A stretch of 64,000 bases of DNA, from NCBI RefSeq assembly GCF_044324875.1, contig NZ_CP172185.1. One strand, written 5' to 3'. This stretch comes from Escherichia coli. GTDB lineage: Bacteria; Pseudomonadota; Gammaproteobacteria; Enterobacterales; Enterobacteriaceae. The position numbers were made by a program, and so were the translations under genes. Below are positions 5,678 through 63,104 of the stretch, in pieces. The notes under the pieces were generated by a model. The model did no database searches, had not been told where the DNA came from, and worked only from the letters and a program-made list of their open reading frames with translations. The stretch's first letter is position 1, and every line of letters begins with the position of its first letter.

Positions 5678-6961
5678 TCACCGTTTGTAATCGATGGCTT
5701 CTGGCTGCTCCAGATATACGGTGGTTTGTGCCGGTTGTGTGCTGGCAATCACCTTGCCGCCACGTACCGAATAACGTACCGGAACCTGACGGCGCAGCGC
5801 ATCAAATCCATTTTCAGCCGGCAGGATAATCAGGTTGGCGCTGTTTCCGGCGGCAATGCCGTAATCCTGCAAATTCAACGTCCTGGCGCTGTGGTGGGTG
5901 ATTAAATTCAGGCCGTCGTTAATCTGCCCGTAGCCCATCAGCTGGCAAACATGCAGCCCCATATGCAGCACTTGCAGCATATTCGCCGTTCCCAGCGGAT
6001 ACCACGGATCGAAGACATCATCGTGACCAAAGCAGACGTTAATGCCTGACTCCAGCATCTCTTTAACGCGCGTGATGCCGCGACGTTTTGGATACGTATC
6101 GAAACGCCCTTGTAGATGAATATTGACCAACGGGTTGGCGACAAAGTTAATACCGGACATTTTCAGCAGGCGGAACAGGCGTGAGGTATACGCCCCGTTA
6201 TAGGAGTGCATTGCCGTAGTATGGCTGGCGGTGACTCGTGCGCCCATTCCTTCACGGTGCGCCAGGGCGGCAACGGTTTCGACAAAGCGCGACTGCTCAT
6301 CATCGATCTCATCACAGTGAACGTCGATGAGACGGTCGTATTTTTGCGCCAGGGCGAAGGTTTTATGCAGCGACTCCACGCCATATTCACGGGTAAATTC
6401 AAAATGCGGAATCGCCCCAACAACGTCTGCTCCTAAGCGTAGCGCCTCTTCCAGCAACGCTTCACCGTTGGGATACGACAAAATCCCTTCCTGCGGGAAG
6501 GCGACGATTTGCAGATCAATCCACGGCGCAACTTCCTGTTTCACTTCCAGCATCGCTTTCAACGCAGTCAGCGTTGCGTCGGAAACATCGACATGGGTAC
6601 GCACATGCTGAATGCCGTTGGCAATCTGCCATTTCAGCGTTTGCCATGCGCGTTGTTTCACATCGTCATGGGTTAATAACGCTTTGCGCTCGGCCCAGCG
6701 TTCAATGCCTTCAAACAGCGTGCCGGACTGATTCCAGTTCGGTTGCCCGGCGGTTTGCGTGGTGTCCAGGTGAATATGCGGCTCCACAAACGGCGGTAAA
6801 ACTAAACCTTGTTCGGCATCCAGGCTGTTTTCAGTTACGGGCATCACACCAGATTGCGCATCAATGGCGCTGATTTTTCCGTCCTGCAGATGAATCTGCC
6901 ACAGCCCCTCTTTGCCGGGTAACCGGGCGTTAATAATTGTTTGTAAAGCGTTATTCGACAC
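5678..6961 (-). CDS. codA: cytosine deaminase, 427 aa with GTG start ([16 protein letters not shown]...)
   Basis: Amidohydrolase recognised as CodA; GTG start 7 bp after codB stop. Confidence 0.93.
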
Positions 6962-8210
6962 TGTTAGCCTCCACATGCGTCATTGCTGCTGTCGTTTTAC
7001 GATTCAAAATCGGGTTAAGGATCAGATAGCTCAGCGCGCCACCTAATACCGCGTTGACCGGAACAATTCCCGGTAACCAGTGGCCTGCGGCAATCCCCAA
7101 GGCGACCGCCAGAATCGCCACCCAATTGACACTCATCATACGCGTGGTCGCAAAGTGCTCATAGCGGCGACGGTTCATCAGATAGTCGGCGATGATCACG
7201 CCCCCTACCGGAGGAATAGCTGCCGAAAGGAAGGTCAGCCAGCCGACAAAATTGTTATACAGCCATAGTGCGCAGACCGTACCGATAATACCGTTAATCA
7301 CCGAAAGGGTTTTGCTCGACATACCGGTAATGTTGGCGAAACCTAAGCCCGACGCATAGAGCGCGTTATCGTTGGTGGTCCAGATATTCAGCCCCAGCAC
7401 CACAATCGCGGGTAGCAGCAGGCCCTGAGCAATCATCACATCAGAGATATCTGCCATGCCCAGTGCCGCCGCTCCCGCTGCACCGAAAATAAACATCAAC
7501 GAGTTGCCAAGGAAAAAGGCCACCATCGCCACCAGCACCGCCAGTTTGGCATTGCGACCAAACCGGACAAAGTCAGCGGTGAGCGTACCCGCGCTGATAA
7601 ATGACCCCACAACCAGCGCCAGCGCGACATTGAAATCTAGCGGTTGTGCAGGAACGACCGCTTTTAATGCGTCCAGGCCGCCCATGCCGTTAACGGCCAG
7701 CCACACGGAATAACCGCCAAGACAGGCGATAGCCGGAACCGCAATCACCGAAAGAACCGTCAGCGCCGAAATGCCAAAGAAGACGGTGACGGTCATCAGT
7801 AAACCGGAAACGGCAATCAGCAAATTAATATCCAGCCCGGTTGCCTTACCCACCGGAATGGCAAACATCGCCACGCCAACGCCAAACCAGCCAACCTGGG
7901 TACCCCCCAGCAGCAGTGAAGGCAGCCATGAGCCTTTAACACCAAACGAGAAGCGAGCAAGAAGATGGGTGGTCAGGCCGGTTTTTGCGCCAATGTAACC
8001 AAGAAATGAAGTGTAAATACCGAGGAGAAGATTACCGATGAGGACTGCGAGGAAGAAATCATGATAGCTAAGACCGGTTCCGAGAGTGCCGCCGGTCCAC
8101 ATACTGGCGGAAAAGAAGGTTAATCCCAGCATGACGAACGTCAATGCCAATACCCCTTTCCGCGCCGACTGCGGGACTGGCCCCTGGCTAAAGTTGTTAT
8201 CTTGCGACAC
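6951..8210 (-). CDS. codB: cytosine permease, 419 aa
   Basis: Protein recognised as CodB ([33 protein letters not shown]...). Confidence 0.95.
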
Positions 8211-8344
8211 GAAATTCCCCCTTTTTGCTGTTTGAAACCCAAAAAATCCGCCGCATTCTATTCATCTGAAGATAAAAAGCAATCGTTTTCGTGGGGAAAT
8301 ATATTTTTTATATGAATGAGTGCAAAAAGGTGGGGGAAAAATTA

Positions 8345-9285
8345 TCCACGGTTCAGGCCTGTGGGCATGATAAGACGCGTCAGCGTCGCATCAGGCATCT
8401 GCGCACGGTGTCGGATGCGGCGCGAGCGCCTTATCTGACCTACGGTTCAGACCTGTAGGCATGATAAGAGGCACCAGCGTCGCATCAGGCATCTGCGCAC
8501 GGTGTCGGATGCGGCGCGAGCGCCTTATCCGACCTACGGTTCAGGCCTGTAGGCATGATAAGACGCGCCAGCGTCGTATCAGGCATCTGCGCACGGTGTC
8601 GGATGCGGCGCGAGCGCCTTATCCGACCTACGGTTCAGGCCTGTAGGCATGATAAGACGCACCAGCGTCGCATCAGGCATCTGCGCACGGTGTCGGATGC
8701 GGCGCGAGCGCCTTATCCGACCTACGGTTCAGACCTGTAGGCATGATAAGACGCGCCAGCGTCGCATCAGGCATCTGCGCATGGTGTCGGATGCGGCGCG
8801 AGCGCCTTATCCGACCTACGGTTCAGGCCTGTAGGCATGATAAGACGCACCAGCGTCGCATCAGGCATCGGCGCACGGTGTCGGATGCGGCGCGAGCGCC
8901 TTATCCGACCTACGGTTCAGGCCTGTAGGCATGATAAGACGCGCCAGCGTCGTATCAGGCATCTGCGCACGGTGTCGGATGCGGCGCGAGCGCCTTATCC
9001 GACCTACGGTTCAGACCTGTAGGCATGATAAGACGCGCCAGCGTCGCATCAGGCATCGGCGCACGGTGTCGGATGCGGCGCGAGCGCCTTATCCGACCTA
9101 CGGTTCAGGCCTGTAGGCATGATAAGACGCGTCAGCGTCGCATCAGGCATCGGCGCACGGTGTCGGATGCGGCGCGAGCGCCTTATCCGACCTACGGTTC
9201 AGGCCTGTAGGCATGATAAGACGCGTCAGCGTCGCATCAGGCATCGGCGCACGGTGTCGGATGCGCCACACGACGCATCCGACAA
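8345..9285. repeat. Tandem BIME array, about 10 copies of a 94-bp unit, each with two inverted REP palindromes
   Basis: Unit atgataagacgc(g/a)(c/t)cagcgtcgcatcaggcat...tgtcggatgcggcgcgagcgccttatccgacctacggttcag(g/a)cctgtaggc recurs every 94 bp from about 8367 to 9213. Confidence 0.88.
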
Positions 9286-9289
9286 TACC

Positions 9290-11176
9290 TTACTCTTCCA
9301 TCGCCTGGCGGATCTGATCCAACGACGCAGGATCATCAATGGTCGTCAGATCCCCAGGATCGCGTCCTTCGCAAATCGCCTGGATCGTGCGGCGCAGCAT
9401 TTTTCCGGATCGCGTTTTCGGCAATTGCGAGACAAACCAGACGTGCGCCGGGCGGCCAAAGTTGCCAATCTGGCTGTCCACCAGCGCCATAATCGCCTTC
9501 TCTTGCGAGTGCGCCACCTCACGGTCTTCCAGACTGTCGCTCTCTTTCGGAATGACAAACGCCACCGCCACCTGCCCTTTCAGCGCATCTTTCACCCCAA
9601 CCACCGCCACTTCGGCAACGCCCGGATGACTGGAGATACTCTCTTCAATCTCGCGCGTCCCCAGCCGATGCCCGGCAACGTTAATCACATCGTCAGTGCG
9701 CCCGAGAATAAAGTGATAACCGTCAGCATCGCGGATACCCCAGTCAAAAGTGGCGTACACCGGACGGGAAAACAGCGACCAGTACGTCTTCACAAAGCGG
9801 TCGTCGTCGCCCCAAATGGTCTGAATACACCCCGGCGGCAATGGCCCTTCCACCACCAGCATCCCTTTCTCGTTGACGCCACACGGTTCGCCGGTGACTT
9901 CATTAAGCAACTGCACGTTATAGCCATACATCGGCACGCCGGGGCTACCCAGACGCGTCGGCCTGTCGTCCAGACCGCGAGCAATCGCCATAATCGGCCA
10001 GCCGGATTCGGTCTGCCAGTAATTGTCGATCACTGGCACATCCAGCGTATTGCTCACCCAACTGGCGGTCGGCTCGTCCAGCGGTTCTCCAGCCAGATAG
10101 AGCACTTCCAGCGACGAGAGATCGTGTTTGCGAATTTCAGCGGTAGGGAATTTTTTCAGCACGCGAATGGCGGTCGGCGCTGAGAACATCCGGCTAACCT
10201 GATATTTCTCGACGATTTTCCACCACACGCCGCAGTCCGGCCAGGTCGGTAATCCTTCGTAAACGATAGTCGCCATCCCCGCCAGCAGCGGCGCGTAGAC
10301 GATATACGAATGCCCCACCACCCAGCCGATATCCGAAGCACAAAAGAACACACCGCCCGCTTTGCCGCCAAAAATGGTGTCCATCGAGGTCGCCAGCGCC
10401 ACCGCATATCCGCCAACGTCACGCTGCACGCCTTTAGGTTTGCCGGTCGTGCCGGAGGTGTAGAGAATGCAGGAGGTTTCGTTGGATTCCAGCCACGCCA
10501 CCGGTACCCGCGCGCCGATGTGTTGATGGCGCAACGACGCGAAATCGACATCCCGCCCGCTGACGCGTGCCATTTTCGCCAGCCCGCGATCCACCAGCAA
10601 AACATGGCGTGGCTGGTGCTGCGCCTGACTTATCGCATCGTCGAGCAATTTTTTATAGGGAATGATTTTGCCACCGCGCGCTCCGGCATCAGCCGAGACA
10701 ATCAGCACCGGTTTAGCATCATCAATTCGCGCCGCCACGCTGTGCGAGGCAAATCCCCCAAACACCACCGAGTGAATAGCGCCAATGCGCGCGCAAGCCA
10801 GCAGAGTAATATGTGCTTCGGCAATCATCGGCATATACACCAGCACCCGATCGCCGCGCTGCACACCCAGCGAGCGCAGCATTGAGGCCACCGCATTCAC
10901 TTCGTCATGTAACTGGCGGAAGGTAAAGGTGCGCTCTTCTTCTGTTTCCGAAGAGACGGCAATCAGCGCCAGCGCCTCTGGCTGTTTCTCCAGCCAGCGG
11001 TCGATAGCGTTGTGACACAAGTTGGTTCGGCCTTCACAAAACCAACGGGCAAACGGCGGATTGCTGTGATCGAGCGTTTGCGTAAAGGGCGTCTGCCAGT
11101 CAATACGCCGGGCCTGCTCGGCCCAGAACTTCTCCGGTTCGTTAATCGAACGCTGATAAAATTCGCTAAAAGACAT
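9290..11176 (-). CDS. prpE: propionyl-CoA synthetase, 628 aa
   Basis: Acyl-CoA synthetase fold recognised as PrpE; last gene of prpBCDE. Confidence 0.95.
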   Translation of the reverse strand: MSFSEFYQRSINEPEKFWAEQARRIDWQTPFTQTLDHSNPPFARWFCEGRTNLCHNAIDRWLEKQPEALALIAVSSETEEERTFTFRQLHDEVNAVASMLRSLGVQRGDRVLVYMPMIAEAHITLLACARIGAIHSVVFGGFASHSVAARIDDAKPVLIVSADAGARGGKIIPYKKLLDDAISQAQHQPRHVLLVDRGLAKMARVSGRDVDFASLRHQHIGARVPVAWLESNETSCILYTSGTTGKPKGVQRDVGGYAVALATSMDTIFGGKAGGVFFCASDIGWVVGHSYIVYAPLLAGMATIVYEGLPTWPDCGVWWKIVEKYQVSRMFSAPTAIRVLKKFPTAEIRKHDLSSLEVLYLAGEPLDEPTASWVSNTLDVPVIDNYWQTESGWPIMAIARGLDDRPTRLGSPGVPMYGYNVQLLNEVTGEPCGVNEKGMLVVEGPLPPGCIQTIWGDDDRFVKTYWSLFSRPVYATFDWGIRDADGYHFILGRTDDVINVAGHRLGTREIEESISSHPGVAEVAVVGVKDALKGQVAVAFVIPKESDSLEDREVAHSQEKAIMALVDSQIGNFGRPAHVWFVSQLPKTRSGKMLRRTIQAICEGRDPGDLTTIDDPASLDQIRQAMEE

Positions 11177-12700: not shown

Positions 12701-13870
12701 TTACTGGCGCTTATCCAGCGCGACAAACTGGCGGTCTTCCGGTCCAACATAATTGGCGGAAGGACGGATAATTTTGTTGTCCTGACGTTGTTCGATAATG
12801 TGCGCCGCCCAGCCGGTGACGCGGGCGATAACAAACAGTGGGGTGAACATCTCGGTGGGAACGCCCATCATGTTGTAGGAAACAGCGGAGAACCAGTCGA
12901 GATTGGGGAACATCTTTTTGCTCTCCCACATCACCGTTTCCAGGCGATCGGCGATGTTGTACATCTTCAGCGAACCGCCTTCCTGCGAGAGCTGCTTCGC
13001 CACGCGTTTGATCACCTGATGACGCGGGTCGGCGATGGTGTAAACCGGATGACCAAAACCAATGACCACTTCTCTGTTTTCCACGCGCTTGCGGATATCG
13101 GCTTCGGCTTCGTCCGGCGTTTCGTAGCGTTGTTGGATCTCCAGCGACACTTCATTCGCCCCGCCGTGTTTCGGCCCGCGCAGTGCGCCAATCGCGCCAA
13201 TAATCGCGGAATACATATCAGAGCCGGTGCCCGCAATCACCCGGCTGGTAAAGGTGGAGGCGTTAAACTCGTGTTCGGCGTACAGCACCAGCGAAATATG
13301 CATCGCCTTTTCCCAGCTTTGCGACGGCTTTTCGCCATGCAGCAGATGCAGGAAGTGACCGCCGATGGAGTCGTCATCGGTTTCTGGCTGGATGCGTTCG
13401 CCGTTGTGGCTGTAGTGATACCAGTAGAGAAGAATCGAGCTAAGCGACGCCAACAGTTTGTCGGCAATATCCCGCGCGCCAGAGACAGTGTGCCCTTCTT
13501 TTTCTGGCAGCGTGCAACCGAGTGCGGAAACGCCTGTGCGCATGACATCCATCGGGTGCGACGCCGCCGGTAAGGCTTCCAGCACGGTACGCACGTTAGC
13601 CGGTAAACCGCGCAGGGCTTTCAGTTTTGTTTTGTAAGCGGCGAGTTCGTCACGGGTCGGCAGTTTGCCGTGGATCAGCAGATGCGCCACTTCTTCAAAT
13701 TCGCAATGTTCCGCCAGATCAATAATATCGTAACCACGGTAATGCAAGTCATTGCCACTTTTACCCACGGTGCAGAGCGCCGTATTGCCCGCCGGAACGC
13801 CAGAAAGTGCCACAGATTTTTTCGGTTTAATGACATGGGTACTGTTTTGCAGGATCGTTGTGTCGCTCAT
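12701..13870 (-). CDS. prpC: 2-methylcitrate synthase, 389 aa
   Basis: Citrate synthase family protein recognised as PrpC. Confidence 0.95.
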
Positions 13871-13910
13871 ATTGTCCTCGTCATTGTTATCATTTGTAGG
13901 GTCGAGATTG

Positions 13911-14376
13911 TTGTCGGATGCGACGCTATGCGTCTTATCCGACCTACAGTTCAGTTCACCCCGCAGGCCTGATAAGCCGCGTCAGCGTCGCATCAGGCAT
14001 CGGTTGTCGGATGCGACGCCATGCGTCTTATCCGACCTACAGTTCAGTTCACCCCGTAGGCCTGATAAGTCGCGTCAGCGGCGCATCAGGCATCGGTTGT
14101 CGGATGCGACGCCATACGTCTTATCCGACCTACAGTTCAGCACGCCCCGTAGGCCTGATAAGCCGCGTCAGCGGCGCATCAGGCATCGGTTGTCGGATGC
14201 GACGCTATGCGTCTTATCCGACCTACAGTTCAGTTCACCCCGTAGGCCTGATAAGCCGCGTCAGCGGCGCATCAGGCATCGGTTGTCGGATGCGACGCTA
14301 TGCGTCTTATCCGACCTACAGTTCAGTTCATCCCGTAGGCCTGATAAGCCGCGTCAGCGGCGCATCAGGCATCGGT
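13911..14376. repeat. Tandem BIME array, about 5 copies of a 93-bp unit, in prpB-prpC spacer
   Basis: ttgtcggatgcgacgc(t/c)atgcgtcttatccgacctacagttcag...ggcctgataagccgcgtcagcg(t/g)cgcatcaggcatcgg repeated. Confidence 0.85.
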
Positions 14377-14402
14377 TGTCGAATACAACCAACGGGCGTT
14401 TT

Positions 14403-15293
14403 TTATTTCGCCTGGCTACGGGCAAACAGGTCGTCGAGCTTCTCTTCGTACTGGTAATAGTTGATGCTTTCGTACAGTTCGTTGCGGGTCTGCATGGTGT
14501 CGATGACGCTTTTCTGCGTGCCTTCCTGACGCAGGACGTTGTAGACATGTTCGGCGGCGCGGTTCATGGCGCGAAACGCTGAAAGCGGGTACAGCGCCAT
14601 TGCAACATGGGCACTGCGTAATTCATCGGTAGTAAACAGCGGTGTTGCGCCAAATTCGGTAATGTTGGCGAGGATTGGCACCTGCACCGCATCGGCAAAC
14701 TGGCGGTACATAGCGAGTTCGGTAATCGCCTCCGGGAACAACATCTCGGCACCCGCTTCAACATAGGCCCGCGCACGCTCGATCGCCGCATCCAGCCCTT
14801 CAACCGCCAGCGCATCGGTGCGCGCCATGATCACAAAATCAGGATCGGTTTTCGCATCCACCGCCGCGCGGATCCGATCCACCATCTCCTCTTTCGAGAC
14901 GATCGCTTTATTCGGGCGATGGCCGCAGCGTTTCGCACCAACCTGATCTTCAATATGCAATCCCGCCGCACCGGCTTTAATCATCGATTTCACGGTGCGC
15001 GCAACGTTAAAAGCAGAAGAACCAAAACCGATATCCGCATCTACCAGCAGCGGCAGCGAGCAGACGTCGGTGATACGGCGAATGTCGGTCAGCACGTCAT
15101 CAAGGGTAGAAATACCGAGATCGGGCAGCCCCAGCGAACCTGCCGCCACGCCACCGCCGGAAAGATAAATCGCCTGATATCCGGCACGCTGCGCCAACAG
15201 CGCATGGTTAGCGTTGATGGTGCCAACAATCTGCAATGGATTTTCTTTAGTCAGTGCAGCGCGAAACGCTTTACCTGGAGAGTGTAGAGACAT
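14403..15293 (-). CDS. prpB: 2-methylisocitrate lyase, 296 aa
   Basis: Protein recognised as PrpB ([34 protein letters not shown]...). Confidence 0.95.
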
Positions 15294-24468: not shown

Positions 24469-24518
24469 GTTGTTATGTCCGCTACAGAGGGTGATGGGGT
24501 TATGACCAACGCCAGACT

Positions 24519-24700
24519 GCCTGATGCGCTACGCTTATCAGGCCTAGAATTCTCGTGCCATTCGTAGGCCGGATAAGGCGTTCACGCCGCATCCGGCAAT
24601 GGTGACAAATGCCTGATGCGCTACGCTTATCAGGCCTACAGATTCTCGCGCCACTCGTAGGCCGGATAAGGCGTTCACGCCGCATCCGGCAGAGACAACG
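24519..24700. repeat. BIME with four REP palindromes between yahG and yahI
   Basis: Two copies of gcctgatgcgctacgcttatcaggcctac...gtaggccggataaggcgttcacgccgcatccggca. Confidence 0.8.
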
Positions 24701-62923: not shown

Positions 62924-62957
62924 GCCCCGCCAGCTATAATCGCGGGGCTTCGTTTTT
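62924..62957 (+). terminator. rho-independent terminator after ykgJ (gccccgc / gcggggc, then TTCGTTTTT)
   Basis: 7-bp GC stem plus T-run. Confidence 0.6.
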
Positions 62958-63104
62958 CAGGGATAACAAAACCCGAAACTTCTTCCATCTGCCAGCAACA
63001 ATGCCTCTTCCTCTATAGTGTTCTCCGGATCTACAGCATCCTGAAGTAGCGCGATGTACTCATTGGCTATCTGCATCAGAAAGTTAAAAACAATGTTTTT
63101 AACC

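Follow-up and report, generated by a model that had tools for sequence, protein, structure and literature searches.

A block of tandem palindromic repeats separates prpE from codB in the Escherichia coli genome GCF_044324875.1, and it raises three connected questions: to which class of element it belongs, whether its length is genuine and how it compares with the same locus in other strains, and what such an array would do between these two genes. We examined the locus in a 64,000-nucleotide stretch of contig NZ_CP172185.1 (hereafter the window), to which all positions refer unless another sequence is named. The block is very probably the resident BIME-2 of the prpE–codB intergenic region in a ten-unit allele, to which we ascribe a putative mRNA-stabilising, attenuating and gyrase-site role.

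Anatomy of the array and its genomic position

Tandem Repeats Finder resolves a single array at 8348–9265, with a period of 94, 9.8 copies, 96% matches, no indels and a score of 1703, in agreement with the first-pass annotation of a BIME array of about ten copies between codB and prpE. An independent repeat search returned nine in-register copies at a spacing of exactly 94 nt, and alignment of the units in register shows that they differ by scattered single bases only. Repetition of the 94-bp unit is far above chance expectation, and the G+C content of the array is 62.8%, as against 50% in the rest of the window.

When the register is rotated to begin at a REP foot, each unit can be dissected into a Z2-type REP of 36 nt (GTAGGCATGATAAGACGCGCCAGCGTCGCATCAGGC), a head-to-head linker of 13 nt (ATCTGCGCACGGT), a Y-type REP of 34 nt in the opposite orientation (GTCGGATGCGGCGCGAGCGCCTTATCCGACCTAC) and a tail-to-tail linker of 11 nt (GGTTCAGGCCT). 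The earlier reading, in which every 94-bp unit contains two REP palindromes in inverted orientation, is thus correct. The tetranucleotide GTAG starts nine of the ten Z2 REPs (the first has GTGG) and CTAC ends all nine Y REPs, and in DNA folding each REP forms its own hairpin. Altogether the array contains 20 palindromes, comprising ten Z2 REPs, nine full Y REPs and one short Y-like terminal hairpin. The features of the locus are as follows, with scores given in bits against the Rfam naRNA4 model discussed below.

6951–8210, minus strand: codB, cytosine permease, 419 aa, the downstream gene (ORF, and annotation in homologous loci)
8348–9283, minus strand: whole BIME-2 array, between the prpE stop codon and the codB promoter region
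8348–8360, minus strand: left edge, consisting of an isolated tail-to-tail linker copy, ACGGTTCAGGCCT (left-junction comparison)
8361–8454, minus strand: unit 1, with Z2 at 8361–8396, head-to-head linker at 8397–8409, Y at 8410–8443 and tail-to-tail linker at 8444–8454; 64.1 bits at 8364–8440
8455–8548, minus strand: unit 2, Z2 at 8455–8490 and Y at 8504–8537; 63.3 bits at 8458–8534
8549–8642, minus strand: unit 3, Z2 at 8549–8584 and Y at 8598–8631; 71.3 bits at 8552–8628
8643–8736, minus strand: unit 4, Z2 at 8643–8678 and Y at 8692–8725; 70.6 bits at 8646–8722
8737–8830, minus strand: unit 5, Z2 at 8737–8772 and Y at 8786–8819; 70.4 bits at 8740–8816
8831–8924, minus strand: unit 6, Z2 at 8831–8866 and Y at 8880–8913; 70.8 bits at 8834–8910
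8925–9018, minus strand: unit 7, Z2 at 8925–8960 and Y at 8974–9007; 71.3 bits at 8928–9004
9019–9112, minus strand: unit 8, Z2 at 9019–9054 and Y at 9068–9101; 72.4 bits at 9022–9098
9113–9206, minus strand: unit 9, Z2 at 9113–9148 and Y at 9162–9195; 70.3 bits at 9116–9192
9207–9255, minus strand: unit 10, truncated, Z2 at 9207–9242 and head-to-head linker at 9243–9255; 49.9 bits at 9210–9284, under the gathering score
9256–9283, minus strand: terminal Y-like hairpin, GTCGGATGCG-ccacacga-CGCATCCGAC, replacing the Y REP of unit 10
9290–11176, minus strand: prpE, propionate--CoA ligase, 628 aa, whose 3′ region is the array (ORF, and annotation in homologous loci)

The array together with its terminal hairpin spans 8348–9283, or 938 bp if counted to 9285. 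The terminal hairpin is perfect and shorter than a Y REP; it folds as RNA into a 13-bp stem from U9284 to A9255, and as DNA with −11.6 kcal/mol (z = −4.25). It begins 5 nt past the prpE UAA (9292–9290) and is kept in all E. coli examined, one-unit strains included (C, K-12, M8, O157:H7 and TUM13867).

The window ORFs and the RefSeq annotation of homologous loci place prpE and codB in tandem on the minus strand; contrary to the first-pass annotation, the flanking genes are not convergent. The published model relevant to the locus is therefore the one in which a REP separates tandem genes and serves as terminator and stabiliser, and not that of REPs between convergent genes. In the direction of transcription, the prpE stop codon is followed by the terminal hairpin, the array and a putative codB promoter, a promoter-like site at 8326–8298 on the minus strand that the promoter scan identified with its −35 hexamer 21 bp beyond the last repeat base. 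The array is the 3′ region of prpE and lies upstream of this predicted promoter.

The left junction (8331–8360) is rearranged in the window's clade, with a linker copy in place of the 16 nt GGTGTAAAAACAGTGG that are present in K-12, C, M8, O157:H7 and TUM13867. This change sits approximately 21–35 bp upstream of the −35 hexamer predicted for codB, at a position that we take to be the site of NAC, an activator of codBA; NAC control of codBA was reportedly described by Muse et al. in 2003. On the other side of the predicted promoter, 8279–8292 (gcaatcgttttcgt) resembles what we presume to be the PurR operator of codB.

Array length across E. coli

The gap between codB and prpE measures 1079 bp (8211–9289) in the window and 329 bp in K-12 MG1655 (354593–354921). 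Between the same anchors the distances are 959 bp and 209 bp, which correspond to ten units in the window and two in K-12, so the array is indeed larger than its K-12 orthologue, as the first-pass annotation had stated. For the survey of other strains we used a 3,000-nt query made of the flanks only, with insert size calculated as match span minus query length; a query containing the array was abandoned because it gave misleading coverage for alleles of other lengths (for example, 69% for a nine-unit match). The flanks-only query found the locus in 5,232 of 5,426 complete E. coli genomes, and an even-step sample down the flank-match ranking of these 5,232 yielded 59 usable loci, distributed as follows.

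1 unit: 17 of 59 sampled loci (for example, strain C)
2 units: 26 of 59 (for example, K-12)
3 units: 6 of 59 (for example, M8)
5 units: 1 of 59 (042)
8 units: 6 of 59 (three O157:H7, two TUM13867-type and one AR_0085)
interrupted by IS621: 3 of 59 (for example, 98234)

One or two units are thus found in roughly three quarters of E. coli. Close relatives of the window, defined as the 48 records with flank identities to it of 99.2% or more among the matches listed, form a clade of long arrays with a different distribution.

5 units: 4 of 48 close relatives among the matches listed
7 units: 1 of 48
8 units: 6 of 48
9 units: 31 of 48
10 units: 5 of 48
11 units: 1 of 48 (CNREC_004-43)

The comparison of array length across E. 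coli genomes that the first-pass annotation had proposed therefore yields a range of 1 to 11 units among the complete genomes looked at, mostly one or two, and bears out the claim that copy number differs between strains and lineages. The description of the array as expanded holds relative to K-12 only and fails within its own clade, where nine units are the norm; among the matches listed, the ten units of the window exceed the mode of that clade by one and approach the species maximum. Length can also be constant within a lineage, as in O157:H7, in which six of six sampled genomes have the same array length.

An insertion sequence of the IS110 family, IS621, occupies the prpE–codB intergenic REP region in approximately 5% of the sampled genomes. 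In strain 98234 the leftmost Z2 REP has the IS directly behind its GTAG foot, and seven further matches among those listed carry IS621. TUM13867, without the IS, has an extra 7-nt GTAGTGG at the same spot that may be its footprint.

Unit haplotypes and changes in copy number

Letters were assigned to the distinct 94-nt units of nine related arrays, in the register starting from ACGGTTCAG, and the arrays then read as follows.

Window: ABCDEFCGHI
ECA64: JKCDEFCCGI
300033: JKCDFCCCGI
CNREC_004-43: JKCDFCDFCGI
STN0717-11 and BEC1-S17: JKCDFCCGI
WP8-S18: JKCDFCLI
SW070912: JDFCCGI
042: JCGHI

Each of units A and B is set apart from J and K by a single private SNP. Among these relatives, arrays always differ in register and by complete units of 94 bp: one C is gained between STN0717-11 and 300033, a block of three units is duplicated in CNREC_004-43, KC is lost in SW070912, and five units disappear from window-type to 042-type arrays. 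The five-unit loss would be explained by a crossover within the approximately 50 nt that are identical across a unit boundary. Unit L of WP8-S18 combines the 5′ state of C with the 3′ state of G, which marks it as a chimera from exchange within a unit.

The flanks of 042 (NC_017626.1, 415895–419362) are 100% identical to those of the window over 3,000 nt, yet it has five units and the window ten. Haplotype H is limited to these two among the nine arrays compared. The five units of 042 are explained either by a recent deletion of five others or by collapse of the array in that older assembly.

That the closest genome by flank identity among the matches listed carries half as many units is the one observation that could favour an assembly artefact, in which a shorter array was over-expanded and the strain really has fewer units, as the first-pass annotation had feared. 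We regard this as extremely unlikely. A spurious expansion would normally duplicate identical copies, and nine of the ten window units are distinguishable by their SNP combinations, haplotype C alone occurring twice. The order of the units also agrees with independent assemblies, since the sub-order CDEFC recurs in ECA64 and CGHI in 042. Comparable lengths have been assembled repeatedly in complete genomes of relatives, with exactly ten units in at least three other distinct genomes (ECA64, CB6837 and 300033), 11 in CNREC_004-43 and nine in 31 of the 48 related records among the matches listed.

Copy number in this family of arrays would change through in-register unequal homologous exchange between units or through replication slippage. 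Ton-Hoang et al. proposed that the REP-associated transposase, TnpA(REP), could likewise add or remove BIME units (PMC3333891), and the sequences appear to fit slippage or unequal exchange and TnpA(REP)/RAYT amplification alike. More distantly, the eight-unit array of TUM13867, whose flanks are 98.4% identical and whose left junction is ancestral, has haplotypes C, D, F, G and I in common with the window, indicating that the two arrays are homologous and did not expand independently. The units of O157:H7 have their own SNPs.

Among the related arrays, duplications most often involve haplotype C. The C-to-T SNP that defines it creates weak sigma-70-like matches on the minus strand at 8958–8931 and 8582–8555 (CTGATA, a 16-nt spacer and TATCAT; 9 of 12 positions), which point towards codB and are consensus matches only.

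Relationship to BIME-2 and to REP325

BIME-2 elements are defined by Y and Z2 REPs joined by a short S linker and repeated in tandem, with the copy number at any one locus differing from strain to strain (PMC3333891). The window array has Y- and Z2-type REPs that alternate in inverted orientation; a head-to-head linker that at 13 nt is short, unlike the long L linker with IHF site of BIME-1; tandem copies that vary between strains at the orthologous locus; and an extragenic position with GTAG or CTAC at the REP feet. Set against the classification of Gilson, Bachellier and Hofnung (reviewed in PMC3333891), it is the same in REP arrangement, short linker, tandem repetition, extragenic location and variable copy number, and no difference is categorical. 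The Y REP is a local variant, with GTCGGAT...ATCCGAC in place of the usual GCCGGAT...ATCCGGC, a compensatory pair change.

Several other classes were considered and set aside. A BIME-1 or IHF-binding RIP element is excluded by the short linker and by the lack of a match to the IHF consensus WATCAANNNNTTR within 8348–9285. A CRISPR array is excluded because the whole 94-nt period repeats at 96% identity, leaving no unique spacers, and a protein-coding array because the only ORFs are of 33 aa and 61 aa, repeat every 94 nt and shift frame with each unit. A search with the generic REP pattern GATGCGNCGNNNNNCGNCTTATC matched only the prpB–prpC array; it misses the prpE–codB array because the loop length differs.

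The nearest well-described counterpart is REP325, the K-12 model of a large REP, with 12 hairpins; the window allele is longer, with its 20 palindromes. REP325 lies between yjdM and yjdN, also genes on the same strand, and has the same build of Z2 REP, 13-nt linker, Y REP and tail-to-tail linker. The Z2 REPs are identical at 34 of 36 positions and the Y REPs at 29 of 34, with two of the five Y differences forming a compensatory stem pair. While the flanking genes differ and REP325 has a period of 100 with 5.8 copies, as against a period of 94 with ten units here, the difference in period results from a tail-to-tail linker of 17 nt in REP325 and 11 nt in the window, and apart from these six additional nucleotides the two units align over their full length. 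The K-12 allele of the prpE–codB element itself shares position, stop-proximal hairpin and unit type with that of the window, and differs in having two units, eight fewer, and in retaining the 16 nt at the left junction where the window's clade has a linker copy.

The likeness to REP325 bears on a different reading, in which the array is a cluster of naRNA4-type non-coding RNA genes whose transcripts bind HU, bridge cruciform DNA and condense the chromosome. Nine units score 63.3–72.4 bits against Rfam RF02564 (naRNA4, a family derived from REP325), above its gathering score of 59.5 and all on the minus strand, the prpE sense strand, while plus-strand scores of 35–54 bits are all under the threshold; Qian et al. 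(2015) moreover described condensation of DNA by REP325, naRNA4 and HU (PMC4550694). RF02564, however, also matches the prpB–prpC array and an element at 24567–24636 and is in effect a detector of any Y/Z2 pair, so that its hits provide no evidence for a specific RNA gene, and the promoter scan found no evident dedicated unit promoter beyond weak consensus matches. The function is disputed even for the type element: a 2026 study in which the original laboratory took part did not support the HU/naRNA4 nucleoid-condensation model, reporting no stable ternary complex of HU, cruciform DNA (crfDNA) and naRNA4, a nucleoid size unchanged on REP325 deletion or overexpression, and no REP–REP contacts in Hi-C (10.64898/2026.03.23.713779). 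We therefore judge naRNA4-type function at this locus to be highly unlikely, and continue with the array as a BIME-2.

Other repeats in the window

A second BIME array, at 13910–14381 (period 93, 5.1 copies, 96% matches), is placed within the prp operon, between prpC (12701–13870, minus strand) and prpB (14403–15293, minus strand). It has 5.1 copies in the window (532-bp gap) and 4.1 in K-12 (439 bp), and four of its units are above the naRNA4 threshold. A REP pair at 24518–24691 (period 93, 1.9 copies), with a consensus resembling a shorter Z1-type REP and a Y REP, contains the window's best naRNA4 score, 78 bits at 24567–24636 on the plus strand. A short tandem repeat is present at 48002–48112 (period 47, 2.4 copies, 81% matches), and 62944–63144 on the minus strand matches Rfam IS009 (RF02111) with 192.9 bits against a gathering score of 117. 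For the interval 12000–36000, no end-to-end match was found among complete E. coli genomes; the best matches reach 96–97% coverage and 98.3–98.6% identity in three to nine pieces, which indicates that the region beyond the prp operon is mosaic with respect to the strains that share the array.

Proposed role of the array

As prpE and codB are on the same strand, the array would form the end of the prpBCDE transcript. Its sense-strand RNA is predicted to fold with −501.5 kcal/mol over 966 nt (z = −10.8), and another fold of the sense RNA gave z = −6.1. No hairpin followed by a U-tract was found in the array, which rules out an intrinsic (Rho-independent) terminator there; the only terminator-like site in 8000–9500 is at 8178–8190 on the plus strand, outside the array.

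In the REP325 model, the repeats lie between same-strand genes and follow the upstream gene as part of its 3′ region, as they do here. REP325 was reported to attenuate downstream transcription approximately ten-fold, in a partly Rho-dependent manner, and to protect the upstream mRNA, with a ladder of truncated hairpin-containing transcripts (bioRxiv 10.64898/2026.03.23.713779). By analogy, the approximately 20 stable hairpins of the prpE–codB array would block 3′-to-5′ exonucleases and thereby stabilise prpE mRNA, and would attenuate read-through into codBA; we propose that the attenuation would be partly Rho-dependent because the array has no hairpins with U-tracts. At the DNA level, gyrase cleavage sites are enriched in BIME-2, mostly in Y REPs and independently of transcription (PMC6379681), and the array may similarly offer up to nine Y-REP gyrase sites. 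Two supplementary files of that gyrase-mapping paper make no mention of prpE or codB, and a literature search that combined BIME with prpE or codB returned nothing relevant.

The terminal hairpin may have an effect of its own. REPs no more than 15 nt from a stop codon stall ribosomes and lower translation according to Liang, Rudd and Deutscher (2015), as cited in PMC12306157, and the prpE hairpin at 5 nt is within that limit, so it may slow termination of prpE translation. Since this conserved hairpin is common to all alleles, the likeness lies in the hairpin and is not a property of the expansion.

Taken together, these comparisons suggest that the array would most likely stabilise the prp message at its 3′ end, provide leaky insulation in front of codBA and present gyrase with clustered sites, and that more units would probably bring more of the same effect. 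A competing view holds that the array is a functionally neutral selfish repeat that is tolerated, drifts in length by slippage and has no effect on prpE or codBA. Array length does vary from 1 to 11 units among healthy lineages whose flanks are otherwise conserved, and the interruption by IS621 suggests that disruption of the region is tolerated. REP effects have moreover been reported to be context dependent and often small, with mRNA half-life not uniformly changed (10.64898/2026.03.23.713779), so that function at prpE–codB could be weak or absent and the extra units neutral. On the other hand, every E. coli examined retains the stop-proximal hairpin and one or more Z2 REPs, copy number is stable in lineages such as O157:H7, and hairpin potential is kept, as in the compensatory C–G to T–A change in the Y stem relative to REP325. 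Neutrality thus seems to us a serious though somewhat unlikely alternative, and we favour the array as a stabiliser, leaky insulator and gyrase-site cluster.

Implications for E. coli

The class of BIME-2, its functions and its copy-number polymorphism are already established, and the window array is a long allele of a known element. Such arrays and their variation in copy number between strains have been described since the 1990s. The locus can serve as a lineage marker, with a length that is stable in O157:H7 and varies between 5 and 11 units across the 042-like clade. Its approximately 0.94 kb of 96%-identical repeats will make short-read assemblies break off or collapse, and length differences between assemblies therefore need care.

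A more far-reaching idea, which we consider unlikely, is that array length is a heritable stepwise dial, each Y/Z2 pair adding an increment of attenuation between the propionate-induced prpBCDE transcript and codBA together with one gyrase site. Were this so, the 8- to 11-unit alleles fixed in the 042-like clade and O157:H7 would insulate cytosine uptake from propionate metabolism more strongly than the one- and two-unit alleles of most E. coli, and the natural series of 1, 2, 3, 5, 7, 8, 9, 10 and 11 units would amount to a titration of REP dose dependence. Whether attenuation and stabilisation by REPs scale with hairpin number was left open by the 2026 study of REP325 (10.64898/2026.03.23.713779), and a natural allelic series between two genes whose regulation is well understood is suited to testing it.
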